From an uncultured Collinsella sp. (GTDB lineage: Bacteria > Actinomycetota > Coriobacteriia > Coriobacteriales > Coriobacteriaceae): DNA of 64,000 nucleotides. Below are positions 3,780 to 30,382 of this stretch, one piece after another; the stretch's first letter is position 1, and every line of letters begins with the position of its first letter. The notes beneath the pieces were generated by a model, which worked only from the letters and a program-made list of their open reading frames with translations, searched no databases and was not told the origin of the DNA. The DNA lies in contig CATZIX010000007.1 in NCBI GenBank assembly GCA_958420205.1, forward strand, positions 63,490-127,489, given 5' to 3'. A program made the position numbers and the translations under genes.

Positions 3780-3798
3780 AAGTGTCCTCCAAGGGGAT

Positions 3799-4112: not shown

Positions 4113-4166
4113 GCCGGATTCGGACCGTCGACACCCGCGTCACTCATTTCCCCGCGGGGGGGAGTT

Positions 4167-4241: not shown

Positions 4242-4358
4242 CATGCCGTAGTATTCGCTGCTTCAGATAAAGAAAGCGCCCGCTTGCTGGGGGAGCAAGC
4301 GGGCGCCTGTGAGCGAATATGTTTGCGGCGAAAGCCGTGATGAGCGGTGGGGTGGCGA

Positions 4359-6320
4359 CTAGTTGGTCGTACCGGAATCGTCGCCCGTGCTCGTGCCCGA
4401 GCCCGAGCCCGAACCAGAAAGTGCGACCGTCAGCGTAATCGTGCTGTCGGTGGACTGCTTTCCAGTGGGGGAGACGCCCGTAACGGTGGCATCCTCGTTA
4501 CCGCTTACGGGATTGCCGTTCTGGTCACAGAAGCCAATGTTATAGAAACCGGCGTTGTTGAGCGCGGTAACGGCGGCGGAGATGCTCTTGCCGTACAGGT
4601 TGCCCGGGACGGTGGCCTTGCCGGACTTCTTGGCAATGACGACGGTAATCGTGGCGCCGGGCTTCTGCTTGCCGCTGGGGTTCCAGCTGATCACGGTGCC
4701 CTCGGTAACCGAGTCGTTCTCCTGGTAGCTCACGTCGACGCCAAAGCCTGCCATATCGAGGGCGTTGCGCGCCTGGGCCTCGGTCATGTCGGTCAGGTCG
4801 GGGACGGACGTGGTATCCGGGCCGCTCGAGACCTTGTACGAGATGGTCGTGCCCTTCGCGACTTCCTTACCGGCTTCGGTGCCCTGCTCAAAGACCTGGC
4901 CCTCATCAGCCTCGTTGGCCTCCTCGGAGGCGTTGCCCTTCAGGCCAACGCTTGCCAGCGCGGCCTCGGCCTGGTCCTTGGTCAGGCCGACAAGATGGGG
5001 AACCTCAACCTTCTCGGAGGGCTTGGGACCCTTGGAGATTACCAGGTTCACCTTGGTGCCCTTGGCCTTCTTGGTGTTGCCGTTGGGCGTCTGCTCGGCG
5101 ACCTTGCCCTCGTCGACATCGTCGTTGTAGCTTTGGTCGATGGTGCCGACCTCGAGGCCGGCTTCCTTGATCAGCTCGACGGCAGTCTGCTGGTCCTTGC
5201 CCAGCACATCGGGCACGGTGACCTGCTCGCCGCCAAAGAGTCCTGTGGCAAAGGCCACCACGATGCAGATGACGGCAACGGCTGCCACCACGGCGGCGAT
5301 GATCTTGTTCTTGTTGGATTTGGGCTTTTCGACCTCGTAGGAGCCGGTGGAGCCCGAAACCGAGCTACGGGTGGTATTCTGGCCGCTCACGCCCGAGACG
5401 GGACGCACCATGGCGCGCGTCTGATCGGAAAGCTCGCGAGTCTTGGTGGCGCCCAGCTCACCGGGGGCACCGATGATGCGCGTGGGCTCCGAGACGTTGA
5501 CGGCACGGCCCGACAGGTAGCTGTTGAGCACCTGACGCAGCTCGTCGGCGGTCTGGAAGCGGTTTGCCGGGTCTTTCTCCATGCACTTGAGGATGATGCG
5601 CTCAAGGTCGGCGTCGACACCGGAGTTGATCTGGCTCGGCGGAATAGGCAGCTCGTTGACCTGCTTGAGTGCGACCGAGATGGCGTCGTCACCGTCAAAG
5701 GGAACGCGGCCGGTGGCGCACTCGTACATCACGACGCCCAGCGAGTAGATATCCGAGGTGGGGCCGAGGTCCTGACCGCGGGTCTGCTCGGGGCTGACGT
5801 AGTGGGCGGTTCCCAGCACGTTGTTGTCTTGCGTGAGGTGGCTGTTCTTGGCACGCGCGATGCCAAAGTCCATCACCTTGATGTTGCCGTCGGGCAGCAC
5901 CATGATGTTCTGCGGCTTAATGTCGCGGTGGATGATCTCGTGCTTGTGGGCGACCGAAAGCGCAGAGCTGATCTGCGAGCCGATCTGGGCGACCTTCTTG
6001 GGGTCGAGGGCGCCGTGGCTCTTGATGCCGCTCTTAAGGTCGGTGCCGCGCAGGTACTCCATGACGATGTAATAGGTGTCGCCGTCCTTGCCCCAATCGT
6101 AGACGCCCACGATATAGGGGGAGGAGAGACCGGCTGCTGCCTGGGCCTCCTGCTTAAAGCGTGCGGCGAAGGTTGCGTCGCCGGCATACTGCGGCAGCAT
6201 GATCTTGACGGCGACCGTGCGGTCGAGGACCTGGTCCTGTGCACGGTAGACGGTCGCCATGCCGCCCGTTCCCACCTTATCCTTGAGGAGGTATCTTCCC
6301 CCGAGGACCCTCTGTTCCAT
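4359..6320 (-). CDS. pknB: Ser/Thr protein kinase PknB with a transmembrane helix and extracellular PASTA repeats
   Basis: Hanks motifs are GTGGMATVY, VAVK, HRDIKPQN, DFG and SPEQ. The TM helix is IIAAVVAAVAVICIVVAF. PASTA-like repeats follow (VPDVLGK..., VPHLVGL..., VPDLTDM...). ATG 6320 has a GGAG RBS; the alternative ATG is 6335. Confidence 0.92.
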   Translation of the reverse strand: MEQRVLGGRYLLKDKVGTGGMATVYRAQDQVLDRTVAVKIMLPQYAGDATFAARFKQEAQAAAGLSSPYIVGVYDWGKDGDTYYIVMEYLRGTDLKSGIKSHGALDPKKVAQIGSQISSALSVAHKHEIIHRDIKPQNIMVLPDGNIKVMDFGIARAKNSHLTQDNNVLGTAHYVSPEQTRGQDLGPTSDIYSLGVVMYECATGRVPFDGDDAISVALKQVNELPIPPSQINSGVDADLERIILKCMEKDPANRFQTADELRQVLNSYLSGRAVNVSEPTRIIGAPGELGATKTRELSDQTRAMVRPVSGVSGQNTTRSSVSGSTGSYEVEKPKSNKNKIIAAVVAAVAVICIVVAFATGLFGGEQVTVPDVLGKDQQTAVELIKEAGLEVGTIDQSYNDDVDEGKVAEQTPNGNTKKAKGTKVNLVISKGPKPSEKVEVPHLVGLTKDQAEAALASVGLKGNASEEANEADEGQVFEQGTEAGKEVAKGTTISYKVSSGPDTTSVPDLTDMTEAQARNALDMAGFGVDVSYQENDSVTEGTVISWNPSGKQKPGATITVVIAKKSGKATVPGNLYGKSISAAVTALNNAGFYNIGFCDQNGNPVSGNEDATVTGVSPTGKQSTDSTITLTVALSGSGSGSGTSTGDDSGTTN

Positions 6321-9323: not shown

Positions 9324-9339
9324 AAGCGGCACTCCCTTT

Positions 9340-11139
9340 CTAATTCTTATCGGAGGCTTCGGCCTCGGCGGACTGTTCGGCGGTTTTCTCGGAATCTGAT
9401 TCGGAGGTCGATCCCTGATTGGTGTTGTCGCGAATCGTTTGCGCGTCGATCACCTGGCGGGTCTGCTCCTCGTCGATCTGGTGGCGGTACTTGGATATCG
9501 TGTCCTGCGCATCGTCGACACTTGTTTGCGGAATGCCCGCCTTGAGGCGGTTTTGCGTGTCTTCGGGCAGGTCGGACAGCTTGATGCTGGTTTCGCTTTC
9601 GAGCCAGTGGAGCTTGAGTCCGAGTGGCTCGCCGGGCAGGCCGCGCCAGACGGCGACATTGCCCTGGTAGGTACCCAGGTAGTACGAGCCGGTGACACCC
9701 GTGTAGGCCCAGATGCCAGCTGCCAGCACAAAGACGAGGGCCAGGATGGCGGCGATAGTAACGTTGCGGCGACGCACGCGTTGCGCCTCGCGCATGACGC
9801 CATCGTCAACCAGGTCAACGACTACTACGGTCACGTTGTCGTGGCCGCCGGCGGCAAGCGCCGCGTCCACTAGGTTGTCGACGCAGATTTGCGCGGTTGA
9901 GGACTGCGTGGCGATGTTCTCGATATCGCTATCGGGAATCATGCTCGAAAGGCCGTCAGAGCACAGGATCAGACGGTCGCCTTCCTCGATATGCAGAGTG
10001 AAGTGGTCGGCATACATGGCGGGGTCCGAGCCCAGCGCACGGGTGATGACCGAACGGTTGGGGTGGACGCGAGCCTCGTCTGCCGTAATCTCGCCGGCGT
10101 CCACGAGTTCTTCCACATAGGAGTGGTCGCGGGTCACGCGGATGAGCGTGCCCTCGTGGAGCAGGTAGGCGCGCGAGTCGCCCACGTGGGCGATGGCGAG
10201 CGTGTCGTTTTCGATATAGGCGCAAGTGGCTGTGCAGCCCATGCCGGGCTTGCCCAGGCCGTTCAGGGCCGCCTCGATTACGGCGGCGTTGGCTGCCTCG
10301 ACGGCTGCGGCCAGGCGTGCTGCGTCGGCGGACTGTGGGGCCGTCTTGGCTATAGTCTCGACAGCGATAGAAGAGGCTACCTCGCCGGCGGCGTGACCAC
10401 CCATGCCGTCGCATACGCAAAAGAGCGGCGACTGCACCAGGTAGGAATCCTCATTGTGCGGGCGCACGCAGCCAACGTCGGAGCGGGCGCCCCACATGAG
10501 TTGCGTGGTGGTGCCGGCATCATAGGTCGAGTCGGTCTCGATGCGCTCCTCGGTCAGGGGCTCAAAGCTCATGGTCGAGCCGGGGTCTTTGAGCTTGGCC
10601 TCAACGGCGGCAACGTCGATTTCGGCTGTGTCACCGGGAGAGACGGTGTCGGTCTCGGCGTTTGATTCGGAATCACCGGTGTCCGGGGAGTCGGGCTCCT
10701 CGGAAACGCGGGCGGTCGACTCGTCGTCTTGCAGGCTGACGTCTATAGGCTCGGGCGCCGGCGTAGACGCGGGCGCAACCTCGGATGCCGGGGCTATGGG
10801 AAACGCCGGCGCGGCGGGCTCGGGTGCCGCAAACACCGCAGCGCTCTCGTTGATTGCCGCGGCGACGGGCTCTGCAAAGTGAGCCGGCGCCGGGGCTGCT
10901 TCGGGCGCTGTGGGCTGTTCCGCAGCATGTGCGCCGATGGGCGCCGCTGCGGCATCCTCTTCGTCCTCGTTATCGGCGAGATCCGAAATATCATGCGTTA
11001 CATGCGAAAGAGGCAGGGAGAACACGGTGTCCTCGGGTTCCACGGGTGCGGAGCCCGCCGGAGCGGCGTGGGCCGGTGCAGCTGCGGCGGCAGCCGGTGC
11101 CTCGGTCATGGTTGCGGACTTGTTCTCCTCGTCGATCAT
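9340..11139 (-). CDS. pstP: PP2C-family Ser/Thr phosphatase PstP with a long acidic/Ala-Pro-rich N-terminal extension, a TM helix and an extracytoplasmic tail
   Basis: PP2C motifs are RPHNEDS, CDGMGGHAAGE and DGLS...GGHDN. TM helix is VTIAAILALVFVLAAGIW. The ATG overlaps the fhaB stop (ATGA). Confidence 0.85.
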   Translation of the reverse strand: MIDEENKSATMTEAPAAAAAAPAHAAPAGSAPVEPEDTVFSLPLSHVTHDISDLADNEDEEDAAAAPIGAHAAEQPTAPEAAPAPAHFAEPVAAAINESAAVFAAPEPAAPAFPIAPASEVAPASTPAPEPIDVSLQDDESTARVSEEPDSPDTGDSESNAETDTVSPGDTAEIDVAAVEAKLKDPGSTMSFEPLTEERIETDSTYDAGTTTQLMWGARSDVGCVRPHNEDSYLVQSPLFCVCDGMGGHAAGEVASSIAVETIAKTAPQSADAARLAAAVEAANAAVIEAALNGLGKPGMGCTATCAYIENDTLAIAHVGDSRAYLLHEGTLIRVTRDHSYVEELVDAGEITADEARVHPNRSVITRALGSDPAMYADHFTLHIEEGDRLILCSDGLSSMIPDSDIENIATQSSTAQICVDNLVDAALAAGGHDNVTVVVVDLVDDGVMREAQRVRRRNVTIAAILALVFVLAAGIWAYTGVTGSYYLGTYQGNVAVWRGLPGEPLGLKLHWLESETSIKLSDLPEDTQNRLKAGIPQTSVDDAQDTISKYRHQIDEEQTRQVIDAQTIRDNTNQGSTSESDSEKTAEQSAEAEASDKN

Positions 11140-12572: not shown

Positions 12573-14422
12573 GAAAGATCACTCTCCGTATAGGTTCTTT
12601 GGTATCCGAGCAAATATAGGCATATTCCAACGATTATAGAGGATAGGGTTCCCGCAACCGCCGCCTTGGCGACGACCGCGGCTGCAAGGCTGGCAATTTC
12701 CATATGGTGTGCAAGACAGGACGCCGCTGCGCAGCCGATACCGGTGACAGCGATGGCGGCGATTGCGGCAAGGTTTGAGCCCTGGTCGGCACGCTTGACA
12801 TGGGCATTGAGCAGCGCGGATGATGCTGCGGCAGTTGCCGCGACCAGCACAAAGGCAGTCCAAAGGAGCGGATCTCCCAGCGCTGCGGCAACGTTACCGA
12901 GCCCCAGCACGCCTCCGGCTGAAAGCGCGACCGTGGCCAGACGGGCAAAAAGCGCGCCCATGCCCGTTGCCGCGGCGGCGCTTGCCGGGCCGAGCCAAAA
13001 TGACGCGACGCTGGCGGCGACCCCAGCTGCCAGGAAGGTATTGCCGGTCAGACAGCCAAGCGCGAGCGCACAGGTGAGCGCGGCGCTCGCGGCAGCCTCG
13101 GTACGACCCCAGGCGACCCACCAACCGGACATGGCGGCGGCAAAGATCACCGCGACCGGCAACATCGACAGGATGCCCTGTGCCTGCATGGTGGCGTTGG
13201 CCATGAGCACCAAAAAGCCCACAGCCGAGATGGCCGAGCCAATCTGGGGGGCCAGGCCAGCCGCCGCGCCGATCGCGATGGCCGCAATGACCAGGCCGGG
13301 AAGCGCCGCGACCCCGGCCGTTTGCATCAGCAAAAAGCTAAAGGTGCCGCACGTTAGCGCCGAGATAATGCGCATGGTGTAGTCGCGCGCATGGCTCCAG
13401 CGCGTGCCCGCCCAGCCGAGTGCGGGGTCGACCTCGATGGCGTCGTCCTCGTAGTGCGACGGCTCGATACCGCCGAGCTCCTGCTCGTCATCCGAAAGCT
13501 CGCCAACCATTTGCTCCAGGCTGCGACGGCCCTCGCGCACGCTGCCCAGACCGGCAAGGAGCTGGTCGCAAAATGCCTCGATGCTGTTGGGGCGGTCCTG
13601 CGGCATGGGGGAGAGCGCGCTCATGAGCGCGGCCTCGGCTCCCGGGGGAAAGTGTGGTATCAGCTCGCTGGGATAGGTGGCGCCGCCGATGATGCGGTTG
13701 AGCGAGTCGGCGGGCGTGGCCGCCATAAAGGGAGCGCTGCCGCACAGGCCCTCGTAGATCACACAGGCGAGGGCAAAGACATCGGCGCGTTCGTCGACCG
13801 TGCCGGTCTCGATATCGAGCTGCTCGGGCGGCATGTAGCCGATGGTGCCGCCTCGCGAGCCGCCAAAGCCACCGGCGGACGACAGTCGCGCCATGCCAAA
13901 GTCGGTGAGCTTTACATTGCCCGAGTGGTCGATGAGCACGTTGGCGGGCTTAATGTCCAGGTGGAGTACGCCATTACTATGGGCGAAGGTGAGCGCCTGG
14001 CCCAGGGCATCGGCAATGGCTGCGGCCTCGTCAAAGGTAAGTGAGTGGCCGTCCACGCGGTGCAAAAACTCGGCCAGCGACATGCCATCGACATATTCCA
14101 TAACCAGGTAGGCATAGGCTGTGTCGTGCGTAAAGTCGATAACCTGCACGATATTGGGATGTTGAAGCATAGCGGCGGTGTGCGCCTCGCGCAGGACATC
14201 CATGATGTCGCTGGCGGGCATGCCGGCACCGTTGATAAGGGGGATGCGTTTAATGGCGACGCGGCGGCGCAGGTGCGTGTCGCGGCAGATCTCGATGGAG
14301 CCAAAACCGCCGGTCGCAAGTGTCTCGAGCGGCTGGTACCGCTTGAGCAGCTCGCGAGAGCTGGTGCCCTCCAAAGGAACGTCCGGCGAGAACCGGGCGG
14401 TATGTTGCGAGAAAAGCGGCAT
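12569..14422 (-). CDS. Hanks-type Ser/Thr kinase with a polytopic Ala/Gly-rich membrane C-terminal half
   Basis: Kinase motifs are GGFGSI, VAIKRI, HLDIKPAN (non-RD) and DFGMA. About 270 C-terminal residues form multiple hydrophobic helices. ATG 14422 has a GAGGG RBS; the track start is TTG 14428. Confidence 0.8.
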   Translation of the reverse strand: MPLFSQHTARFSPDVPLEGTSSRELLKRYQPLETLATGGFGSIEICRDTHLRRRVAIKRIPLINGAGMPASDIMDVLREAHTAAMLQHPNIVQVIDFTHDTAYAYLVMEYVDGMSLAEFLHRVDGHSLTFDEAAAIADALGQALTFAHSNGVLHLDIKPANVLIDHSGNVKLTDFGMARLSSAGGFGGSRGGTIGYMPPEQLDIETGTVDERADVFALACVIYEGLCGSAPFMAATPADSLNRIIGGATYPSELIPHFPPGAEAALMSALSPMPQDRPNSIEAFCDQLLAGLGSVREGRRSLEQMVGELSDDEQELGGIEPSHYEDDAIEVDPALGWAGTRWSHARDYTMRIISALTCGTFSFLLMQTAGVAALPGLVIAAIAIGAAAGLAPQIGSAISAVGFLVLMANATMQAQGILSMLPVAVIFAAAMSGWWVAWGRTEAAASAALTCALALGCLTGNTFLAAGVAASVASFWLGPASAAAATGMGALFARLATVALSAGGVLGLGNVAAALGDPLLWTAFVLVAATAAASSALLNAHVKRADQGSNLAAIAAIAVTGIGCAAASCLAHHMEIASLAAAVVAKAAVAGTLSSIIVGICLYLLGYQRTYTESDLS

Positions 14423-19852: not shown

Positions 19853-20758
19853 ATGCGGCCCGGTGGCACTCAGACAAAGCGCGGCGCCGCGGTGCGCATG
19901 CGACGCCGACTGGGCTTGGCGCCGCGGGCGTACGTGCTGCTGTCGTGCTCGCTGGTGCTGGTCATGGCTGGCGTTTCTGCCTATGGCATGACCGTGCCGT
20001 CCATGATGCAGGCGCATACCGCACGCGAACCGCGCGTGGGGCATGAGGTCAAAAGTGATCTGGGTACCACGACTGGATATGCTTGGGCAAGTGTGGTCGC
20101 GCATATTGTGTTTGGCACCGACGATGCGGACGGCGCCGAGGCCCCGGACAACGAAGTCACGCTTGCCAATGGCAAAACCATCGTGCTCACCAACACCAAG
20201 ATCATCGATCGGTTGTCCAACAATAGCGTGGCGGCAACGGTGAAAAAGGTCGAGCAGCAGAAGGAGCAGGACGCCCAGCAGTCCGGAAAGCCCGGTAGCT
20301 CGGATACTTCTGGCTCCGGCTCGGATTCATCGAGTTCGGGCGGCGGCTCTGGGTCGGGTTCCTCTACCGGAGGGTCTGGAAACGGCGGCTCGACGGGCGG
20401 CAACACTGACAACGATGCAAACTCCGGTGGCCTTTCCGCTGCTGAAGAAGAGAGCATTCACAGTTGGCTTGTGACCAAGTACAACATGCTCGACGGCTAT
20501 GTTTCTCGTGCCAATGACGTGGTCTCGACCTATAACTCTACGGGAGATCCCAGACCGTGCGACAGCCTGGTCGGGGAGATGTTTGTCATTCGAGCCGAGT
20601 TCGGTCGTCAGACATTCTCGCCCCGGTCAAAGTGGTATCAGCAGTATGCCAATCTGTGGGGCTGTTACACCAACCTATGTCAATGGGTCGGCCATTACGG
20701 CGATGATGACGTCGCGCTCGGTAACTTCAACAATAACGTGGCGGCGCTTGCCCTATGA
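19853..20758 (+). CDS. membrane-anchored/secreted protein with a Ser/Gly-rich linker, unknown function
   Basis: The ATG follows GGAGGAG. The signal anchor is VLLSCSLVLVMAGVSAYG, followed by the tract SGSGSDSSSSGGGSGSGSSTGGSGNGGSTGG. Its stop overlaps the kinase start (ATGA). Confidence 0.55.
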   Translation: MRPGGTQTKRGAAVRMRRRLGLAPRAYVLLSCSLVLVMAGVSAYGMTVPSMMQAHTAREPRVGHEVKSDLGTTTGYAWASVVAHIVFGTDDADGAEAPDNEVTLANGKTIVLTNTKIIDRLSNNSVAATVKKVEQQKEQDAQQSGKPGSSDTSGSGSDSSSSGGGSGSGSSTGGSGNGGSTGGNTDNDANSGGLSAAEEESIHSWLVTKYNMLDGYVSRANDVVSTYNSTGDPRPCDSLVGEMFVIRAEFGRQTFSPRSKWYQQYANLWGCYTNLCQWVGHYGDDDVALGNFNNNVAALAL

Positions 20759-22599
20759 TGACCGATCTTGCATCCACCACACCACAATCGCTCGGTCGCG
20801 ATTCCATGGTCGGCCTGCGCCTGGCGCGTGTCGACGGGTTTGAGCCGGCCATTGCGCTCGGTCAGGACGAACTGCCTGCCTATTTGCGTCGTTTTACGAT
20901 GCTGTTTGCCGACGATGCCACCATGCGCCGTGGCGGTATCGGCCGCGTGACGCGTGCCGTCAACGCCCAAGGCGAGGCCGTGGCACTCAAGCAGCTCATC
21001 TTGCCGACGCGCGATGAGTTTGACGACGATGCCGCTCACGAGGCGCTGGTCGCCAAGTTCAAGGCGGCGTTTCGCGAGGAATACGAATGCCATCGCGCCC
21101 TTTCGGGCCTTAAGGGCTTTCCCCGCCTCTATGGCTGGGGCGAGGTCGACGGTGTGCCTGCAATTGTCATGGAATGGGTCGAGGGCGAGACGCTTGCCCG
21201 CTTGCGTTCGCGACTCGCCGTGGACGATGCCGGACGTCTGTCGCCGCTCGTGGCGGCGCGTCTGGGTCGCGACCTGTTCGATTTGCTCTGCCGTATGAGC
21301 CTGGTGGGCGAGGGCTTTGTCCATCGCGATATCTCGCCCGCTAATATTATGGTGCGCACGGCGCGTCTACCGCTTGACCGGCAGCTTGCCGAGGGCACAT
21401 TTGACCTGTGCCTGATCGACTTTGGCTCATCGCTGGCGCTTGAGCCTGCGTCGGCCGTGGCCGGTACCGGCGGCAAGGCGTCGTTTACGGAGCGTTATGC
21501 CACGCTGCGTCGCGCGACGGTTGCCTATGCCCCGCCCGAGATGCTCACCGACGATATTCCCGACCTGCGCGCTTTGCGTATGTCACCGGCGATTGACGTC
21601 TATGCCGCGGCAAGCACGGTTTACGAGCTCATTGCCGGCGTCACGCCATACGAAGCCGCGCCGAGCACTTCGGGCGCCTCGGGTTCGCGCAAAAGGACGC
21701 GCGACATCGCGAGCCCCTACCGTCTTAAGATGGACACGCGGCCCGACTATCCCATTGGTGCCCATGCGCCCGGTTGTGATTTGACTCAGCTGCTTCGTCG
21801 TGAGCCCGATGTGGCGCTCGCCGCGGCCGAGCAGGCCCAGCAGCTAGGGCTTGAGCCGGATTCCGAAGAGCTACGCGATGCGCTGGCGTTTGTCGATGCC
21901 CAGCTGTTCGACGTGGTGATGGCCTGTCTGTCCAGCCATCAAAAAGATCGTCCCGAGCCGGCGGCGGTCGAGGCGGCGCTCTCAGCGTTTTGTGACCACT
22001 ATGCGCAAAATGTCGGCCGTTCGCTCCGCGGCGAGCCGCTCACGCCGTGCCCCATGGATGCGTCTGGCCGCGCGGTTCGTCGCGCGCTGATGGTCGGCGC
22101 GACGGTCGTCTGTGGCGTGGTTTGGGCTGTGATCGTGGTTTCGGCCGCGCTGCTGGCGTCGGGCGCTCGCGTGACGGCGACTTTGGGATCGCTCGTGTGG
22201 TCTGGGTCGCTACCGGGTATTATTGCCGCACTGGCGTTGGCGCTGCCAGGCATAGCCGGCGTTGCCGCGGGGGCGCTTGCGCGCGATCGGCGCTCGGGCT
22301 TCCTGCAGGGTGTGCTTGCGCTTTCTGCCTGCGAGGTTCCGGTGCTGGTTGTGGCTGCATGTAGCGTATTTTCCCAACGCGCCGTGATGGGCGGCCTTGT
22401 TGCCGCTCTGGTTGCAACCTATACGCTTACGTGGTTTTTGCTTGCGATGGGCTTTGCCTTTGAACTTCCCGTTTCGGCACCGCGACGCACAAAAGCCCAG
22501 ATGGCGACTCCGCTTGCCGGTGGAGCCGCAGCTGCCCGTACTTTTGGCGGACCTGTCGAAGTATCGTCCGATTCTATTTCTACGACTAAGGAGGCCTAG
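20755..22599 (+). CDS. Hanks-type kinase-like protein with an atypical catalytic loop and a polytopic membrane C-terminus
   Basis: VALKQL, HRDISPAN (Ser in place of the catalytic-loop Lys), DFGSS and APE are present. The C-terminal ~170 aa has several TM helices. Confidence 0.75.
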   Translation: MMTDLASTTPQSLGRDSMVGLRLARVDGFEPAIALGQDELPAYLRRFTMLFADDATMRRGGIGRVTRAVNAQGEAVALKQLILPTRDEFDDDAAHEALVAKFKAAFREEYECHRALSGLKGFPRLYGWGEVDGVPAIVMEWVEGETLARLRSRLAVDDAGRLSPLVAARLGRDLFDLLCRMSLVGEGFVHRDISPANIMVRTARLPLDRQLAEGTFDLCLIDFGSSLALEPASAVAGTGGKASFTERYATLRRATVAYAPPEMLTDDIPDLRALRMSPAIDVYAAASTVYELIAGVTPYEAAPSTSGASGSRKRTRDIASPYRLKMDTRPDYPIGAHAPGCDLTQLLRREPDVALAAAEQAQQLGLEPDSEELRDALAFVDAQLFDVVMACLSSHQKDRPEPAAVEAALSAFCDHYAQNVGRSLRGEPLTPCPMDASGRAVRRALMVGATVVCGVVWAVIVVSAALLASGARVTATLGSLVWSGSLPGIIAALALALPGIAGVAAGALARDRRSGFLQGVLALSACEVPVLVVAACSVFSQRAVMGGLVAALVATYTLTWFLLAMGFAFELPVSAPRRTKAQMATPLAGGAAAARTFGGPVEVSSDSISTTKEA

Positions 22600-22602
22600 G
22601 TC

Positions 22603-23541
22603 ATGGCATCTCAAGTTGAGCTCACCCCATGCGGGGCCATGTTTGACATCTTTAAGCGCGCGGCGCATCTGAGCCATATCGAGCTGTGCGGCTTGGTGCT
22701 TTCGTCCCGTCCGCTCGCCGACGGCCGCAGCCCGCAGAGCCGAGCCGCCGATCGCTCTTGGGTTTCCCGCTTTATCGTTCGCGCGCCGGTCGGCACGCTT
22801 CAGCAGCGCTACTTTGCCGAATACGGTACCTCGGCTGCGCGCATTATGTCGCAACTGGCCCTGCGCCAGCGAAATCCCATGGACTCCACGGCTGTGATCA
22901 ATATGGTGTGCGGTCCTGCAGGTGAACCGATGGTACGCGCGCTCGAAGAGTGCCACCAGGACACGAATCTCTATCGCAACGCGCTCGATCGCCTGTCCCA
23001 GGCGGCGGAACTCATGCCCGCCGAGCGCGCCGAGGCCGTGCTGGTGCTGTTTGTCGCTGTCGGTTGTTCGGCGGATGTGCGGTCCTCGGTGAACTATGCC
23101 ATCGACTACGCGCACGCGACCTGTGGCGGAGGCACCTCCACGCCGCGTTCGCTTGGCATGTCGATGACCGCGGGCGAGCGCGAACCCGCCCCGGCGCACC
23201 CCTTGGGCTTGCTGCGCGTGCAAAACAGTTTTGTCGTGAGCGCTCCGCGCTGGATTCAGCCGAGTGAGCAGGGTGTTGAGATTGGCGCGCTGGCCACTGG
23301 TGAGGGCGATATTACCGACGTCGGCGACGATGTCTCGGCCCGCCATGCCCATATCTGGTGCGATGCTCAAAATATCTGGCGCGTCGAGGACTTGTCGTCC
23401 ACCAACGGAACCGTGGTGGTAAACGGGGCCACGCGCGTCTGCATTCAGGTCGAGCCCGGCCGTTCCGCCCAACTCAATCCCGGCGACGAGCTCAAGCTCG
23501 GCGAATCCACTACCTACGCCATCCTGCTCGGCGCCCTCTAG
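22603..23541 (+). CDS. FHA-domain protein (unknown N-terminal domain plus C-terminal FHA)
   Basis: AAGGAGG RBS. The FHA core is VSARHAHIWCDAQNIWRVEDLSSTNGTVVVNG...LNPGDELKLG. Confidence 0.78.
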   Translation: MASQVELTPCGAMFDIFKRAAHLSHIELCGLVLSSRPLADGRSPQSRAADRSWVSRFIVRAPVGTLQQRYFAEYGTSAARIMSQLALRQRNPMDSTAVINMVCGPAGEPMVRALEECHQDTNLYRNALDRLSQAAELMPAERAEAVLVLFVAVGCSADVRSSVNYAIDYAHATCGGGTSTPRSLGMSMTAGEREPAPAHPLGLLRVQNSFVVSAPRWIQPSEQGVEIGALATGEGDITDVGDDVSARHAHIWCDAQNIWRVEDLSSTNGTVVVNGATRVCIQVEPGRSAQLNPGDELKLGESTTYAILLGAL

Positions 23542-23647
23542 CCGGCAGTTAGGGGCGTTCCTTTTCTGCCGGCACTTGGGGGCACTTCTCTGCGCGCCAG
23601 AGCCGGTCGCCTGGGGATGGAGAGGCCATTTTGGCCCTTGGCGGTCA
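23109..23647 (+). repeat. left copy of the ~530-bp direct repeat flanking the AT-richer island (3' half of the FHA gene plus ~105 bp downstream)
   Basis: Aligned by eye to 29860..30382. The 5' part is diverged. Tract 23332..23525 matches 30067..30260 with a single mismatch. Confidence 0.85.
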
Positions 23648-23778
23648 GTCGGGGCGAAACTAGAAGATCTTTCCGATTCGCGGCTGTTCATGCTTGTAGA
23701 GCATCTAAAACAATAGGATGTTATTCTGGAATATGCCGGGTGCGTGAACTTGCCTGTCTTAGCCTTAAAAAGGTATAG

Positions 23779-24527
23779 GGGAGTTTGGCTCAGGGGTTCC
23801 GTCTTGTTCTTCAGCGCAGTATTGTGGGACAGATTTGCTGAGATTGGCGCCTTACACCGCAGAGCGCACGGAAGGCTCTCGATTTGTGTTCTGGCCCCAG
23901 AATACAGGGCCTGATACTTACCAACTGTGGCATGGATGTAACATCTGTAGAAATCAACCCTTTTGTTGTCGACCTTTGTAAGAAGAACACTGCCATCAAC
24001 TCTTTGGATGACGAAACTAGGGTGCTTGAGGGGAGCCTTTACTCCCCTCTGTGAGATGACTCATGTTTTTCGCTTGTCGTTGTGAATCCTCCGTTACTGC
24101 CGATTCCGGATGAGATTCCTTATCCCTTCGTTGGGGATGGGGGACAATCGGGTCTGGATATAACACTTCATATTCTTAAGGGTGGCGATACGCATTTAGA
24201 GGAAAACACTAAATACTGCTAATAGGGGTGACGACGATGGCGTAGGGGCGACCCACGATGCTCGCATCAATACGTCGGCTACTTGGGGAATCAGGTCTAG
24301 ATGCATGTATGATGATACTGTGCAGCTATTCAATTAGTCCGCGTTCCGAATGGGTGCGGGGTATGGCGGCGACGTCGTATGCTTTTGCCCTGGCGCGATA
24401 CTCAGGTATTTCTGAGGCGGTTGACGAAGTTTATACGCGCTATGCCGCGCAAGGCGTCCGGAAGTTTGCACATCTACATTACGGGCTTAGGTTTCTTCAA
24501 GCGAGCAGGCTGGTTGCGTTATTATGA
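23779..24527 (+). pseudogene. decayed class I SAM-dependent methyltransferase
   Basis: Motif I-like LDLCSGP, then VTSVEINPFVVDLCKKN and an NPPY-like VVVNPPLLP, all in one frame. That frame is broken by in-frame TGA codons at 23839 and 24052. A frame shift leads into the 24258..24527 ORF (LLGESGLDACMMIL). Confidence 0.45.
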
Positions 24528-24614
24528 GCGATTTTTCTAGCCTAGGCGACAAAAGGCAAAGGATTTGGTGGGTGTAAAACGAGGTCGTTTGCGGGCGGAC
24601 GCTCCAATCTATTG

Positions 24615-24660
24615 TGGCAATCGGGCGGTTGAAAAAGATATTTCAATCGCCCGATTGCCA
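24615..24660. promoter_or_regulatory. 20-bp-arm palindrome (TGGCAATCGGGCGGTTGAAA-AAGATA-TTTCAATCGCCCGATTGCCA) ~150 bp upstream of the ABC exporter
   Basis: Read directly. There is one G:T position in the arms and no flanking T-run. Candidate operator rather than intrinsic terminator. Confidence 0.4.
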
Positions 24661-24805
24661 GATTCGTCGGAGGAGATGTCCGATTCCGACTCTCTTGTAG
24701 GAAGAGCTTGAGACCGTATTGGCCCAAGGCAATCTTAAAGCAGTCTCATTGGCAAATCTTCGCTCCTGTTGTGTTGAGGTGTAAGGTATCAGTGATTGAT
24801 GTTTT

Positions 24806-26458
24806 GTGGCGGGTAGATTGGGGCCTTCCTTGATTCGATGCGTTCTCTCGAGGTTCATCAGAGCAAAAGGGGCTTTCGTCTTCATTGCTATCACGGTGAT
24901 TGGAACCGCTCTCTCCTATGCCATGCCATACGTGAACGGAAAATTTTTAGATTTTCTTCTCGGTAACCGCAGCGAAAGAGACGCCGCACTCTTCGCACTC
25001 CTGGTTGCGTCAATAGGAGTTTTCTCCACCCTCTTTACTTATTTTGCAGGAACACTTTCCATTCGCATAAGCACGAGACTTTCCTTTGATCTTCTCAGGG
25101 AGGCCGTCTTGCGTTTTGAAAGAGACGATTACTTGGTGAGTCGGACCATCGATCCAGCCTATACAACGCAACGGATTATTTCCGACTCCAGCGTGGTCTC
25201 ATCCTTCGTTTTGGCGAATTTCATCAGTGCGCCGCTGTCCATTGTAGCTATTCCCATCGTATTGCTTATCATATGGTCAATTGATTCAACTCTCGCGGTG
25301 TTTTCCATCATTCTCCTCATCGTGTATTTCTGTGTAATTACTGGGTTGAGGAAACTTTTGTATAGGGTCACGTATGAGAAGAAAGAGGCGGACAGCGCCT
25401 TTTACGCCGCAATTGCATCGCAGCTTAATCAGATTCTCAACATTCAACTGGCATCTTCGTACGGCAAGAGCGAACAAGCGCTCGACGCTGGGTTTAAGAG
25501 CTATTTTCCCAAAGTTTTGCGCTCCGGAAAGCTATCATATTCTCTGACATCGCTCGATGGTCTTTTCGCAGCGTTGTTTCAAGCGGTGATACTTGTTGTT
25601 TCCGGAGTACGAATCATTAACGGAACTATGTCAATAGGCGAGTACACTATCATCGGTACATACTTCGCGGTTCTCTTTAAGACTTTGAAAAGTATGATGT
25701 CATTGTTCAAATCCTATCAAGATGCCAAAGCATCATGGGATAGGACGGCTATCGCGACGAGAGAAAAGGAGAGATCGGGGTGGAATCGGACCGATTTAGC
25801 TAAACTCGATGAAATAAATGACATTTCGGTATCTGATTTGGAATTCTCGGTTGCCCTTCCAGACGGATCTGTCCGAGAGGTCCTCGGCGGGTTTTCTTTC
25901 AAGTTTTCCGGTCCTGGTACATATTGCATAGTTGGGGAAAACGGAAGAGGCAAGACATCACTTCTTTACTTGATGCTCGGGCTATACTCATCGAAAGGCA
26001 AAGTAAAATACAACGGCGTGCCAATCGAAGAATGCGACTTGGATTACATACGTGCGAGAGAGATATCGTGCTGCCCACAGTCGTGCTTCGCGCCGGACGA
26101 AACGGTGAAAGAGCTGTTAGAGTATTTCGACACGCCCTTTTCTTCCTATCACCGGGGTGTAGATGGCCTACTTTCGCTGGAAAACAGCGTGAAGGAGTTG
26201 CTCGGGAAACGTTGCTCCGCGCTTTCGGGCGGTGAGCTGCGCCGAGTGTACTTATGGTCGGCGATTTCACGCAAGTCGTCAGTTTTGGTACTCGACGAGC
26301 CCACGACTGGGTTAGACGCTGTAAGCCGCGCCGAGCTTGCGGCCTATGTTAAGCGCAACAAGCAAAGCCAGCTGATCATCGTTGTCTCTCACGATGACGA
26401 GATGGTCGGCGCGGTAGAAGGGGTAGTGGATTTAGGCAGCATGTACCAGGGTAAATGA
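24806..26458 (+). CDS. fused TMD-NBD ABC exporter (no C39 peptidase domain)
   Basis: The N-terminal ~300 aa holds six hydrophobic segments. The NBD has Walker A GENGRGKTS, Q-loop CCPQS, signature LSGGELRR, Walker B VLVLDEPTTGLD and H-loop VVSHD. The start codon is uncertain (GTG 24806). Confidence 0.85.
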   Translation: MAGRLGPSLIRCVLSRFIRAKGAFVFIAITVIGTALSYAMPYVNGKFLDFLLGNRSERDAALFALLVASIGVFSTLFTYFAGTLSIRISTRLSFDLLREAVLRFERDDYLVSRTIDPAYTTQRIISDSSVVSSFVLANFISAPLSIVAIPIVLLIIWSIDSTLAVFSIILLIVYFCVITGLRKLLYRVTYEKKEADSAFYAAIASQLNQILNIQLASSYGKSEQALDAGFKSYFPKVLRSGKLSYSLTSLDGLFAALFQAVILVVSGVRIINGTMSIGEYTIIGTYFAVLFKTLKSMMSLFKSYQDAKASWDRTAIATREKERSGWNRTDLAKLDEINDISVSDLEFSVALPDGSVREVLGGFSFKFSGPGTYCIVGENGRGKTSLLYLMLGLYSSKGKVKYNGVPIEECDLDYIRAREISCCPQSCFAPDETVKELLEYFDTPFSSYHRGVDGLLSLENSVKELLGKRCSALSGGELRRVYLWSAISRKSSVLVLDEPTTGLDAVSRAELAAYVKRNKQSQLIIVVSHDDEMVGAVEGVVDLGSMYQGK

Positions 26459-27050
26459 TGACAAGTGTAGTGCTACCCAACTGGCAGAGATAACAAAAAG
26501 GCGATGCAGATGCACGTAGCATTCAGGCGGTTCGGACTCGGTGCCTTCACGCCATCGCAACGCTTTCAGATATAGTTCTCGTTCTCTTACTAAAGGAAAC
26601 TTTAGTCTACGTCATCTTGTCGAGACAGAGGTGAAGCGAAGTGTTGTCGCGACGTATCTTATTCCAGGTGGCTCAGTATCAGCGTGAGAATCGCACCAAA
26701 GTGTACTTACGATTCTCGTGTCCCACGGACAACATGAGCTGAGCATTGAGGTTCCACCCTTTGCTGCAACTACACGGGGTTGGACGGCAATGAATATGCC
26801 GGGCCGCATACCACGCGCAGCGGGGGTCCATGTCCCAGTATGTTGCCTACAGCAGCCTCGATGTCCGCGCACACATCATCTCTGCCTTCGCGTTCAATCC
26901 ATTTGCCGGAGAGTGCGAGGGTTGCCAGGCCGTAGAATTCGAGCCGAACAAATGAAATGCGGTATCAGCGCATAGGATTAAACTGACGATTGCTTTGCAC
27001 TGAGAATACGCTTGGAAAGCCGCTATGGGTGGCGGCCCGGGTTAAATAGA

Positions 27051-27093
27051 GAAGCCCGTCCGATCACTTTCATGTGGCGAACGGTCGGGCTTC
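27051..27093 (-). terminator. hairpin GAAGCCCG(T)CCG...CGG(T)CGGGCTTC downstream of the minus-strand peptide operon
   Basis: An 11-bp stem with one mismatch and T/A-rich flanks on both sides. It lies 66 nt after the stop of the 35-aa ORF. Confidence 0.45.
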
Positions 27094-27158
27094 TTATTCC
27101 ACTTGCCAATGCTCGGCTCATATTGGAAGAAAGCTACGCTAATGTTTGCGTGACACTC

Positions 27159-27266
27159 CTATTTTCTCCGAAGAAAGAGTCGGATAATGAAGAATAGAAT
27201 TAAAAAAGGTGCCAGATATAACGCAAGTATAAAGGCTAATCCAACGAGACCTTGCAATAATGGCAT
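27159..27266 (-). CDS. 35-aa hydrophobic peptide MPLLQGLVGLAFILALYLAPFLILFFIIRLFLRRK (candidate membrane/immunity or accessory peptide)
   Basis: Not in the ORF track (below 60 aa). GGGAGGAG RBS lies 4 nt before the ATG. A single TM helix is followed by a basic tail. It sits directly downstream of the precursors on the same strand. Confidence 0.4.
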   Translation of the reverse strand: MPLLQGLVGLAFILALYLAPFLILFFIIRLFLRRK

Positions 27267-27344
27267 AACTCCTCCCAGACACGAGATTTTGGTATTTGTT
27301 CCCATCTTATTCTGAATTGGACCAAATAGTTCCTAGCCACAAAA

Positions 27345-27524
27345 CTACTCGTCAACTGGATCGCACCAATCTGCTGGCAAAACACAGCTTGATTCTTTAT
27401 CGACATAGCACCAATCCGCAACAGGGCACTCGGCGATGTCGTAAAAATTGCATATATCAACTCCAAGACAACAAGGCTCAACGGGAGGATGTTCATTTGA
27501 ACCAACAGGATGGATATGCTTCAT
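27345..27524 (-). CDS. RiPP precursor peptide 2 (59 aa): MKHIHPVGSNEHPPVEPCCLGVDICNFYDIAECPVADWCYVDKESSCVLPADWCDPVDE
   Basis: Hand-translated; absent from the ORF track (below 60 aa). The ATG is preceded by AAGGTGAGGAG. It shares the MKHIHP leader and the C-LG-x-DIC-x-(V/F)YD block with precursor 1. It has 7 Cys and 10 Asp/Glu. Confidence 0.75.
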   Translation of the reverse strand: MKHIHPVGSNEHPPVEPCCLGVDICNFYDIAECPVADWCYVDKESSCVLPADWCDPVDE

Positions 27525-27554
27525 AACAGCTCCTCACCTTAATCCAATTAGAGA

Positions 27555-27758
27555 CTACGTTTGATCAATGCCACAGTGATCTACAACGCAGATGCTGCCG
27601 CCATCCATGTCATAGTCGCAGTAATCGTATGCACCACAGCCATCTGCTTTATCATAAACAGTACAGATGTCAGTAATGCCCAAGAGGCAGTCAAAAGACA
27701 TCGGCTTCACGCCTGCCTCGTCGCCACTTCCTGGATTAATCGGATGAATATGCTTCAC
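27555..27758 (-). CDS. RiPP precursor peptide 1 (67 aa from GTG): MKHIHPINPGSGDEAGVKPMSFDCLLGITDICTVYDKADGCGAYDYCDYDMDGGSICVVDHCGIDQT
   Basis: This is the 3' part of track ORF 27555..27806. GTG 27758 is preceded by GGGAGG plus 5 nt, and using it gives the same MKHIHP N-terminus as precursor 2. It has 6 Cys and 11 Asp, and lies immediately downstream of the rSAM gene. Confidence 0.8.
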   Translation of the reverse strand: MKHIHPINPGSGDEAGVKPMSFDCLLGITDICTVYDKADGCGAYDYCDYDMDGGSICVVDHCGIDQT

Positions 27759-27927
27759 GACTACCTCCCTTTGAGTGCAGAAAAACCTCAATATTGTGTA
27801 TAACAAACCAAGATGTCTAGTTCACCATATTTCTAGAATGGTTTCGGCGAATGTAGCAATAAGCTTCGCAGACGGTAATCAGAAGAACGAACACCTCCAC
27901 AATGGTGACAGCAATGCGCTGAACCGC

Positions 27928-29286
27928 TTATTCCGATACAGTAGCTTCTCGTTGATTTTTCTCCTGCGAAGATGAGTGGCGGGAAATAAGGTCAAAAGCC
28001 ATCTCGTAGCACATTTTTCTATATTCACATGATGCAGGGTGTAGACTCTTGGGCAAGTAGCCGTGCTCGTCTGCAGCCTCCCAGCTACAGCCCCCACCAC
28101 AGAAAGACCGAGCCCAACAGTCCGTACAGTCAATTCTTTTTTCGACACCCTGACTCCAGTTTTCAATATACCTAGTTTCGTCAATTCCGGTGACGATGTT
28201 GCCCATTTTGAATCGCATCATCCCGACAAACCTGTGACAGGGGTATACGTCCCCTTCGGGAGTCACGGAAATAAAACGCCTGCCAGCCCCGCATCCGACA
28301 AAGGCGATCCTGTTGCTCATAATCAAATCAACTGCAGTTTTCAATGTTCTAAACAAGGGCTTTTCCCCTTGATCAATCTGTTTGAGATATTGATCCGCCA
28401 AATCTATTAGGCCCGCCCTGATTTTGTTTAATGAGTGTTCGTCGAGTTTGATATTCTCATCGAATGAGCTCACGGGCGAGAAGTAAATCCTTCTGAAGCC
28501 CATCTCTTTAAACTGAAGATAGTCTTCAACAAGGTTACAGTTATTATTTGTTAAGGTCGCTCTTGCGCCGAAGGGGAACGACTCGGAAAAACGACGAACG
28601 TTTTTGTCGATATCGGAGAAAGAGCCGCCTCCCGTCTTGTACGGGCGCGATGCATCGTGCTTGCATCCTGTACCATCGAGACTAATCAGAACAGAAAACC
28701 CGTGCTCCTTGAAAGAATTCACAGCAGTGTCATTCAAAAGCGTTCCGTTGGTCGTAATAGAATAGGTAAAGTTTCTATTGGGGTATATTCTTTTTGAATA
28801 GTCGACCGTTTTCCATATCAGCGGCTCGTTAATCATGGGTTCCCCACCAAAAAAGACGATCGCAAGCGTTTCGTTTTCCGATGAACTTGCGACGAGGTAG
28901 TCGACCGCCTTGAAGGCTATCTCGTCTGTCATCAGCAGAGGAGACGTTCCATAATCTCCTTTACCGGCAAAACAGTAACTACAACCAAGGTTGCATGCAT
29001 GTGAAACGTGGAGTTCGATGGATCTAAGTTTTCGAGGCGTGTCTTTTGTTAAGAAAGTCCGCTCAGACAATCGTTGATACTCATCAATGTCGTCTTCAAG
29101 TTCTGCTATGGTCGTTTGGTCGTAGCCTTTCGCAGCAAGTGACTTTGTTAGCAACTTCGAGTTGACCGTTCTTCCCGATGCTTCAAATATGCGAAGCGCA
29201 TCTTCTGATGCTTGGTCAACCTGAAAGCAATTGCGAGTGACCTCATCGAAGCAGTAACGACGATCACTTACTGAGAAAAAATGCAT
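27928..29286 (-). CDS. radical SAM enzyme with a C-terminal SPASM domain (peptide maturase; SCIFF/ranthipeptide/sactipeptide-maturase-like)
   Basis: The CX3CX2C motif is SHACNLGCSYCF. The SPASM cysteines are CGAGRRFISVTPEGDVYPC, CTDCWARSFCGGGC and CEYRKMC. The N-terminal ~100 aa looks like a peptide-recognition (RRE-type) domain. Start is ATG 29286, or GTG 29316 as in the track. Confidence 0.9.
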   Translation of the reverse strand: MHFFSVSDRRYCFDEVTRNCFQVDQASEDALRIFEASGRTVNSKLLTKSLAAKGYDQTTIAELEDDIDEYQRLSERTFLTKDTPRKLRSIELHVSHACNLGCSYCFAGKGDYGTSPLLMTDEIAFKAVDYLVASSSENETLAIVFFGGEPMINEPLIWKTVDYSKRIYPNRNFTYSITTNGTLLNDTAVNSFKEHGFSVLISLDGTGCKHDASRPYKTGGGSFSDIDKNVRRFSESFPFGARATLTNNNCNLVEDYLQFKEMGFRRIYFSPVSSFDENIKLDEHSLNKIRAGLIDLADQYLKQIDQGEKPLFRTLKTAVDLIMSNRIAFVGCGAGRRFISVTPEGDVYPCHRFVGMMRFKMGNIVTGIDETRYIENWSQGVEKRIDCTDCWARSFCGGGCSWEAADEHGYLPKSLHPASCEYRKMCYEMAFDLISRHSSSQEKNQREATVSE

Positions 29287-29802
29287 ACGTTCCTCAATTT
29301 CATGCTGGACTGGCACTAACCTTGTTTATTGTCGCGCAGCTATAAAAAACCACCAGCGGGGATTCGGTGTGCGGCCCAATCGGACTCCCAAAAGGTTCTA
29401 TTTGAGACTGGCAAGCTTTGTGTTGTTGGCACTTCGACAGCGCTCTTTATTCCAACATGGAGCCTCGCAGTTTGAGTCGACTTGCCTCTGGAAGGTCCGA
29501 TCTTAACTTGATTTAGGATGAAAACAGATTACAGGCGCGCTCCTCTAGAAAGAAAGGAAACCAATCGCCGCCTTTCACCAGGAAAGTTTTCATAGCCCAC
29601 CTCGAGCAAAATGAAAGATGCGAGAGCGATTGGGGAACAACGCGAATCTCCCCTTTTGGGTGGGAGCGAGCCTTCAGCCACCGGCGAACGACTCGCCCTG
29701 GTCAGAATCTGGAAGTGGTGCCGGGCCGCTTGGGCCTCCCCGGTGACTTCGTGGGGCTTACCTGCCTGACGTCGAGGAGTACATCCGCAAGATTCGTTCC
29801 CT

Positions 29803-30276
29803 ATGCCGTTTGCTCTCACGCCCGCCTTAGTTCCAAGTCGGGCGAGCCGCCGCGCTCATGCGACCCGTGGCGGCGACACGTCGACGCCGCGCTCGCTGAG
29901 CACATCTTCGGTCGCGGGCGAGCACGAGGTCGCGCCGGCGCATCCGCTGGGACTGCTGTGCGTGCAAAACGGCTACGTGGTGAGCGTCCCGCGCTGGATT
30001 CAGCCGAGTGAGGAAGGCGTTGAGATCGGCGCGCTGGCAACGGGGGAGGGCGGCATCACCGACGACGTCTCGGCCCGCCATGCCCATATCTGGTGCGATG
30101 CTCAAAATATCTGGCACGTCGAGGACTTGTCGTCCACCAACGGAACCGTGGTGGTAAACGGGGCCACGCGCGTCTGCATTCAGGTCGAGCCCGGCCGTTC
30201 CGCCCAACTCAATCCCGGCGACGAGCTCAAGCTCGGCGAATCCACTACCTACGCCATCCTCTTCGGTGCCCTCTAG
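29803..30276 (+). CDS. 5'-truncated paralog of the FHA-domain gene 22603..23541 (complete FHA core, no N-terminal domain); possibly a pseudogene
   Basis: From HATRGG... onward it aligns with the C-terminal half of the 312-aa protein, and the last ~65 codons are almost identical. There is no convincing RBS at ATG 29803. Confidence 0.5.
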   Translation: MPFALTPALVPSRASRRAHATRGGDTSTPRSLSTSSVAGEHEVAPAHPLGLLCVQNGYVVSVPRWIQPSEEGVEIGALATGEGGITDDVSARHAHIWCDAQNIWHVEDLSSTNGTVVVNGATRVCIQVEPGRSAQLNPGDELKLGESTTYAILFGAL

Positions 30277-30382
30277 CCGGCAGATAGGGACGTTCCTTTT
30301 CTGCCGGCACTTGGGGACACTTCTTGGCGCACCAGGGCCGGTCGCCCAGGGATGGAGGGGCCATTTTGGCCCTTGGCAGTCA
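29860..30382 (+). repeat. right copy of the direct repeat flanking the island
   Basis: See 23109..23647. Relative to the left copy it carries a 9-nt deletion (GTCGGCGAC). Confidence 0.85.

Follow-up and report, generated by a model that had tools for sequence, protein, structure and literature searches.

We analysed a stretch of 64,000 nucleotides (the window) from contig CATZIX010000007.1 of an uncultured Collinsella sp. Two small minus-strand genes in it, pepA and pepB, encode paralogous cysteine-rich peptides beside a gene for a radical S-adenosylmethionine (SAM)/SPASM peptide maturase. We conclude that they probably belong to an operon for a ranthipeptide-type radical SAM RiPP (a peptide made on the ribosome and modified after translation), with two precursors that would each receive six Cys-Asp thioethers, a 35-aa membrane peptide and an ABC (ATP-binding cassette) exporter.

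Two precursor genes with a common leader start

The gene pepB (27345..27524, minus strand; MKHIHPVGSNEHPPVEPCCLGVDICNFYDIAECPVADWCYVDKESSCVLPADWCDPVDE) encodes a 59-aa precursor from an ATG, and pepA (27555..27758, minus strand; MKHIHPINPGSGDEAGVKPMSFDCLLGITDICTVYDKADGCGAYDYCDYDMDGGSICVVDHCGIDQT) a 67-aa precursor from a GTG at 27758. An earlier note on this DNA had proposed a 59-aa minus-strand open reading frame (ORF) from ATG 27524; the translation matches exactly and ends at 27345. The ribosome-binding site (RBS) given there was also found as described, AAGGTGAGGAG at 27530..27540 on the minus strand, 5 nt ahead of ATG 27524, and an identical RBS precedes pepB in L082, one of the related loci (L081 to L090) compared below. 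For pepA, a GTG start at 27758 behind GGGAGG and 5 nt had been suggested; read in this way, with the RBS at 27764..27769 (minus strand), the gene begins MKHIHPINPGS... and encodes 67 aa. The same RBS position is occupied by GGAGGAGG in L082 and by GGGGG in L081.

That both peptides begin with the same leader, as had also been claimed, is borne out by the pepA orthologues in L082, L081 and L085, which carry an ATG (MKH start) exactly at the GTG codon of the window. Mechanically, pepA sits inside an ORF of 83 aa with a TTG start (27555..27806), to which GTG 27758 is internal. The longer start at TTG 27806 was rejected: the 5' extension is unrelated among loci, and pepA of L082 has an in-frame stop four codons 5' of its ATG.

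Both gene calls, the 59-aa ORF and the GTG-27758 start of its 67-aa paralogue, are correct, since public pipelines call precisely these proteins. For the same reason pepB, described as hidden in the earlier note, is so only in lying below the first-stage ORF-length cutoff; public gene callers already annotate the exact protein. By exact-sequence look-up, the 59-aa protein (e.g. HJI44520.1, UniRef A0A6L8RLT5) and the 67-aa GTG-start protein (e.g. CUN48709.1, UniRef A0A173XA95) are each annotated as 'hypothetical protein' on at least 1000 contigs. The representative of the 538-member pepB cluster (P0006) is a 107-aa ENA call in which two TAG codons after pepB are read as Gln; this is apparently an alternative-genetic-code gene-calling artefact that masks the true 59-aa product in clustered databases.

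Sequence comparison identifies pepA and pepB as paralogues, with 25 identities over 62 positions (BLASTP E 1e-10), a similarity far past chance, and no third copy of the family is present in the 64-kb window. Where their DNA differs inside the common MKHIHP leader (ATC/ATT, CCT/CCG), the amino acid stays the same. A block C-LG-x-DIC-x-(V/F)-YD that had been reported as common to both peptides is real, but a one-residue gap is required to align it (CCLGV-DICNFYD versus CLLGITDICTVYD). Pfam and NCBIfam searches with both peptides returned nothing beyond a spurious sub-threshold match to SapA, and no NCBIfam match at E <= 1.

The adjoining maturase belongs to a discrete radical SAM/SPASM clade

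The maturase gene (27928..29286, minus strand) lies directly 5' of pepA. Its mechanical ORF runs to GTG 29316 (462 aa), and both its orthologues and a 4315-member public cluster start at MHFFSV; the most likely start is ATG 29286, giving a protein of 452 aa. The protein carries the Pfam domains Radical_SAM, Fer4_12 and SPASM, and its top NCBIfam scores are to PapB (271.7 bits), the SCIFF maturase (266.4 bits), the nif11 family (260 bits) and QhpD (241.3 bits). Its best solved relative is CteB (5WGG; E 3e-64, 29-30% identity). Alignment to CteB recovers the Fe-S motifs CX3CX2C (CNLGCSYC), GCGAG..YPC and CX2CX5CX3C..C (CTDCWARSFCGGGC..C), all of which are invariant in a 28-sequence alignment of the maturase.

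An AlphaFold2 model built from the same 28-sequence alignment (pLDDT 92, pTM 0.90) was compared with known structures by Foldseek, and matched CteB over its full length, including the RiPP recognition element (RRE) of CteB, with TM 0.83-0.89. Residues 2-73 of the model fold as an N-terminal beta-beta-beta-alpha-alpha-alpha domain of RRE topology. This RRE-like domain is thus predicted, from the model, to bind the leader.

In the protein database the maturase clade is discrete. Its members match at 100% down to about 40% identity, with scores of 1053 to 331 bits; after a gap in score come the annotated SCIFF maturases, at no more than 259 bits and about 33% identity. The motif 'YPCHR' (C350-H351-R352) is invariant in six locus types of the clade, whereas CteB has 'YPCHQ'.

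Each conserved cysteine is followed by an aspartate

The leader of the peptide family reads M-K-H-(I/M/L/V)-x-x-(I/V/L); from there to a conserved Pro the sequence varies. The first conserved Cys lies past this Pro, at residue 19 in pepB and residue 24 in pepA, and from the sequences a leader of about 17-23 aa is plausible. In the core, each peptide has six conserved Cys with an Asp 2-5 residues after each, and both the Cys and its partner Asp are invariant across the alignment of the pepA-like (A-type) and pepB-like (B-type) peptides. Among ten divergent peptides, an Asp occurs at +3 or +4 for 51 of 61 Cys, compared with 20.3 +/- 3.5 in composition-preserving shuffles, none of 5000 of which reached as high a count; for 59 of the 61, an Asp comes ahead of the next Cys. 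Because the peptides are related, these counts are not independent; even L087 and L089, the pairs that diverge most, nevertheless keep the pattern.

A precedent for such a pattern exists in PapB, which makes six thioethers from Cys-S to Asp-C-beta in the six CX3D motifs of PapA and, in vitro, takes CXnD with n = 0-6 (PMC9413430). In a model of PapB, a conserved pair of His and Arg (H377/R378) holds the carboxylate of the acceptor (PMC10739248). Because of this chemistry, the His-Arg model, and the invariant YPCHR of the clade in place of the His-Gln of CteB, we propose the following steps. The short MKH leader, up to the conserved Pro, would dock on the N-terminal RRE of the maturase, and each of the six core Cys thiolates would in turn coordinate the open iron of auxiliary cluster I. 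The Asp downstream of the Cys would have its carboxylate gripped by the conserved pair His351-Arg352, just after Cys350, a ligand of the cluster, and would lose a hydrogen at its beta-carbon to the 5'-deoxyadenosyl radical. Cys-S and Asp-C-beta would then be joined as a thioether. With six such small rings (-12 Da), each peptide would resemble freyrasin, the product of PapA and PapB. The ABC transporter would export the products, and the 35-aa membrane peptide would be a candidate immunity or accessory factor. We infer that the leader is removed, that the 35-aa peptide has such a role and that the products would be bioactive, perhaps as a bacteriocin or a signal.

Maturase and peptides are linked across six locus types

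The maturase occurs together with two peptides in six locus types: the window, L081, L082/L083/L084, L085/L086, L087/L088 and L089. Maturase identity to the window is 67% in L085/L086, 48% in L090, 44% in L089 and 40% in L087/L088, and at all these distances MKH-leader, six-Cys peptides adjoin it, in varying gene order and orientation. L085/L086, L087/L088 and L089 carry two such peptides each; from the short contig of L090 one was recovered, apparently truncated. The status of precursor peptide that the earlier note had assigned to pepA and pepB is therefore supported both by the adjoining radical SAM/SPASM maturase and by synteny in the six locus types.

Of the L087 peptides, L087_B scores 96-108 against B-type cores and 34-46 against A-type cores. 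The separate retention of A-type and B-type peptides suggests, on this sequence evidence, that the two are not redundant, and the products may possibly act as two components.

Distant members of the clade (L087/L088, 6355-11357; L089, 2484-7491; L090, 4441-5691) carry genes absent from Collinsella: an ABC ATPase with a permease of about 500 aa, a Rce1/CPBP-like protease, a second ABC exporter and a helix-turn-helix regulator. L090 also has a second radical SAM/SPASM enzyme. In L081, a GC-rich stretch has expanded the spacer between maturase and pepA (9143-9654) to about 600 bp, from about 170 bp in the window and L082.

Alternative readings of the modification

Several observations weigh against a Cys-Asp ranthipeptide-type system. 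The maturase falls under the curated cutoff of every named family (for PapB, 271.7 bits against 340; for the SCIFF maturase, 266.4 against 425), and by score PapB is not clearly preferred over the SCIFF maturase. The match of His351-Arg352 to H377/R378 of PapB depends on motif context. The canonical CX3D spacing is found for four of the six Cys in pepB and two of the six in pepA, the rest being x2, x4 or x5. Motif periodicity and homology with known systems are the basis on which we predict the type of thioether, its acceptor residue and the topology of the rings. The Collinsella island encodes no leader peptidase; distant relatives have the Rce1/CPBP-like protease. The two peptides of L089 resemble each other more than either resembles the A or B type, and the A/B split is therefore not universal. 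Finally, a promoter-like site (TAGACA-18-AATATT; 27790..27819, minus strand) was located by consensus scan about 30 nt 5' of pepA, and the scan for promoter and terminator consensus sites gave no more sites in the region than in shuffled sequence; its position alone is therefore suggestive, and the promoter call is weak.

One alternative is a different product of the same enzyme, in which the peptides would be modified as sactipeptides (Cys-S to alpha-carbon) or through another acceptor such as Thr, Tyr or Trp, with the Asp residues serving solubility, metal binding or target binding. Sactisynthases likewise use a radical SAM/SPASM enzyme and an RRE; the closest solved structure, CteB, joins Cys to Thr and not to Asp, and the maturase is not a PapB equivalog because its score lies under the family cutoff. 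Yet sactisynthase families score far lower than the roughly 270 bits of PapB and SCIFF (score/cutoff in bits: RumMC 119.6/720, StsB 63.9/625, lachnocin 114.8/550), and the TM of SkfB to the maturase model is 0.49. The strict alternation of Cys and then Asp across divergent peptides is hard to explain if Asp is no partner, and the clade has His-Arg after the auxiliary cluster I Cys, where CteB carries His-Gln. We therefore regard a sactipeptide or a non-Asp acceptor as unlikely, and retain Cys-Asp cross-linking as the probable outcome.

As a further alternative, the maturase might not act on pepA and pepB at all; they would then be true small proteins, perhaps Cys/Asp-rich metal-binding or disulfide peptides, that merely share its island. 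Consistent with this, they are without annotation in the family libraries, and the case for their modification is drawn from sequence. A profile search of 1.84 billion representative proteins, however, found a tiny precursor family, with 16 clusters at E <= 0.001, one of them a false positive (about 15 true) and several of them frameshifted or truncated versions, and each member looked at is linked to this maturase clade. The pair also stands beside the maturase in all six locus types (40-100% maturase identity) despite rearranged order and orientation, neither peptide has a signal peptide, and the modelled RRE domain would imply a leader-bearing peptide substrate. That the peptides are not substrates of the maturase is thus very improbable, and we continue to read them as its probable precursors.

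Substitution patterns favour the pepA and pepB frames

A tblastn scan of GTDB species representatives matched 397 stretches, of which we retrieved the 80 best loci. All of these best 80 of 397 are from Collinsella or Coriobacteriaceae and have a maturase segment that is 100% identical. Counts over 81 Collinsella sequences refer to the window plus these 80 genomes, all of them close relatives. Within the 80 the peptide region is 97.7-100% identical, and pepA, pepB and the 35-aa ORF are each intact in 81 of 81 sequences. The sole indel in pepB is an in-frame 6-nt insertion in the leader, and every Cys is invariant.

More divergent cassettes were obtained from other high-GC hosts, L082/L083/L084 (pepB 90% identical) and L081 (pepB 67%). 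These keep the order of maturase, 67-aa peptide, 59-61-aa peptide and small hydrophobic peptide. In a codon-aware comparison of pepB between the window and L082, we counted 15 synonymous and 6 non-synonymous changes in the proposed frame, against 2 and 20 in the frame of an 89-aa ORF that overlaps it; the comparison with L081 gave 23 and 18 in the proposed frame, against 6 and 36. For pepA against L081, its own frame had 25 synonymous and 24 non-synonymous changes, and the other two frames 4/46 and 11/40. Codon differences between the window and its relatives thus cluster at the third positions of the proposed frames. As comparative sequence data, these results show pepA and pepB to be genuine protein-coding genes under purifying selection.

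The overlapping ORF of 89 aa (27236..27505) had been pointed out in the earlier note; it is indeed present in another frame, with a TTG start and no family hits. A test had been set in advance, namely whether homologous loci lack the pepB frame or keep the 89-aa frame instead; orthologues of pepB are present in L081, L082, L085 and L087, and the loci conserve the pepB frame and not the 89-aa one. A rival view takes the 89-aa ORF for the true gene, and the 59-aa one for an accidental ORF or a duplicate in decay; it has next to no chance of being right. The 89-aa frame is open in the window, with related open frames of 102 aa in L082 and 87 aa in L081, but it is ruled out by its almost wholly non-synonymous changes, by a stop gained in one of the 80 Collinsella genomes, and by the absence of its protein, in an exact-sequence look-up, from a collection of about 15 billion public proteins.

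Remainder of the operon and island

The third small gene of the operon (27159..27266, minus strand) encodes a hydrophobic single-pass peptide of 35 aa, MPLLQGLVGLAFILALYLAPFLILFFIIRLFLRRK, and has its own RBS, GGGAGGAG; at this size it is shorter than the usual ORF cutoffs allow. It is kept after pepB in L081, L082 and L085. Among the 81 Collinsella sequences its changes are conservative, and the 13 codons 5' of ATG 27266 acquire stops. The peptide is a candidate for an immunity or accessory role. Downstream, a strong hairpin followed by UCUAUUU (27050..27094, minus strand) is the probable operon terminator; RNA folding of 27175..27020 (minus strand) gave -53.1 kcal/mol (z = -3.46), and none of 200 shuffles was as stable.

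The ABC exporter (24806..26458, plus strand; ABC_membrane and ABC_tran) combines a transmembrane domain and an ATPase, and is convergent with the peptide operon. It lacks a C39 peptidase domain, since peptide-export ABC models match only from about position 150. The exporter travels with the cassette, at 86% identity in L082, 72% in L081 and 47% in L086.

Between exporter and operon lies an ORF-poor gap of about 700 bp (26458-27159), which has a GC content of about 0.53, above the rest of the island, and holds the hairpin. At the left end of the island, 1.2 kb (23616-24806) is without a long ORF; it contains a 56-aa fragment (23884-24054) with a weak TRM5/TYW2 methyltransferase match (E 0.03) and is possibly a decayed gene. 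This was the only Pfam match among ORF fragments of the two ORF-poor stretches, and an Rfam search of the island at relaxed threshold found no RNA family.

A low-GC cassette in high-GC hosts

The island (about 23616-29500) has 48% GC in a chromosome of 61.5% GC, the GC content dropping from about 0.65 to 0.45-0.53 between two direct repeats of about 500 bp that bracket it. The left repeat (23109..23615, plus strand) is the 3' half of an FHA-domain gene and is 79-94% identical to the right copy (29853..30350, plus strand), which is accompanied by a truncated FHA ORF of 157 aa (29803..30276); Pfam finds the FHA domain in both ORFs. The repeats have the look of a trace of the island's insertion, either a duplicated target or a scar left by recombination. 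At 20755-23541 (plus strand), a Ser/Thr protein kinase gene (614 aa) is directly followed by the FHA-domain gene (312 aa), at whose 3' end the island is inserted; kinase and FHA genes are a typical signalling pair. We found no empty insertion site among contigs encoding the identical FHA protein, because the public contigs with this protein all end at the repeat.

In other hosts of 62-67% GC the cassette has 46-50% GC, and only in L089 does the background match its low GC. In L082/L083 it lies between two IS3-family insertion sequence (IS) copies (2423-3585 and 12788-13950) and looks like a composite transposon; in L081 it is beside IS110 and IS21 transposases (2004-5148). This IS context in other high-GC hosts indicates repeated horizontal acquisition, and Collinsella, too, has acquired the cassette horizontally, as an island of low GC. 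In the 80 Collinsella genomes the flanks are 97-99% identical and the island core 99.9-100%, a difference that is uninformative on recent transfer within Collinsella because these genomes are all close relatives.

Significance

To our knowledge Collinsella, a prevalent, disease-associated human gut genus, has almost no characterised natural products. The tblastn scan of GTDB representatives, with its 397 positive stretches, puts the cassette in hundreds of species-level Collinsella genomes. Public annotation gives every component no more than the label 'hypothetical' or a generic radical SAM name. With both precursors, their right starts and six Cys-Asp pairs in hand, a testable prediction follows, of -12 Da per peptide and Asp-dependent cross-links, and a minimal four-gene construct for heterologous production is defined. 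To the ranthipeptide class this adds a new family of precursors as well as a clade of maturases set apart from PapB and SCIFF. Such a clade is useful because PapB-type enzymes are under development as peptide-macrocyclisation tools. No concept is overturned: known systems have the same architecture and, in all likelihood, the same chemistry. The ORFs themselves were already in public annotation.

A bolder and rather doubtful conjecture sees in pepA and pepB a two-component ranthipeptide, each peptide being one half of it and receiving six Cys-Asp rings from one maturase. The system would spread among high-GC gut Actinobacteria as a self-contained low-GC cassette of maturase, two precursors, 35-aa immunity-like membrane peptide and exporter, and would serve as a factor in competition or signalling. 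A two-component format has not yet been described for ranthipeptides; if the conjecture is true, the cassette would act in a genus that ranks among the most prevalent of the human gut.

Comparison with known systems

Among the papers covered by our literature searches, none describes a Collinsella ranthipeptide, sactipeptide or radical SAM RiPP, and gut surveys of biosynthetic gene clusters give generic ranthipeptide or sactipeptide counts only. Three features general to ranthipeptide-type systems are present: CX3CX2C and a full SPASM domain (two auxiliary 4Fe-4S clusters), a predicted N-terminal RRE, and adjoining precursors with a leader and a Cys-rich core. A fourth, the joining of Cys sulfur to a beta or gamma carbon of the acceptor, is predicted from the Cys-x(2-5)-Asp periodicity.

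In thuricin CD, two related tandem precursors (Trn-alpha and Trn-beta) share one radical SAM cluster and an ABC transporter, as here, a likeness that suggests a two-component product. Thuricin CD differs in being a sactipeptide with two dedicated radical SAM enzymes; here one maturase would serve both peptides.

QhpD, which acts on QhpC in maturation of the quinohemoprotein amine dehydrogenase gamma-subunit, is likewise a radical SAM/SPASM enzyme and makes Cys-to-Asp/Glu thioethers. It is the fourth-best family, but its 241.3 bits lie under a cutoff of 453, and what the maturase here presumably acts on are small peptides with a leader, accompanied by an exporter. No amine dehydrogenase subunit or QhpC-like gene lies nearby, the neighbours being the ABC exporter, the FHA and Ser/Thr kinase genes and a pyruvate:ferredoxin oxidoreductase gene.

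The SCIFF (thermocellin) system of Clostridium thermocellum, CteA/CteB (PDB 5WGG/5WHY), is the best structural match, with all Fe-S ligands kept, and its precursors, like those here, have six Cys in about 40-45 residues. It differs in the 29-30% identity, in the score to the SCIFF maturase model (TIGR03974; 266.4 bits against 425), in having His-Gln in place of His-Arg, and in linking Cys to Thr. Neither pepA nor pepB matched the SCIFF precursor model at E <= 1.

Freyrasin, the ranthipeptide of Paenibacillus polymyxa made by PapA/PapB, shares the RRE-bearing radical SAM/SPASM maturase, for which PapB is the top NCBIfam match, the six-Cys precursor with an Asp after each Cys, and, judged by motif context, probably the His-Arg pair after the auxiliary cluster I Cys; the six Cys-S to Asp-C-beta thioethers predicted here would correspond to the six natural CX3D sites of PapB. 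The differences are a score below the PapB-family (NF047865) cutoff (271.7 bits against 340), mixed Cys-Asp spacings of x2-x5 against a uniform x3 in PapA, two distinct precursors in place of one, an unrelated leader (MKHI..P), and a gut actinobacterial host with a mobile cassette and an added 35-aa membrane peptide. Since the maturase lies under the PapB, SCIFF, nif11 and QhpD cutoffs and the precursors fail the SCIFF model, we assign the system to an uncharacterised clade of ranthipeptide-type radical SAM/SPASM RiPPs and to no named family. Functionally it is closest to freyrasin (PapA/PapB), and structurally it is closest to CteB.

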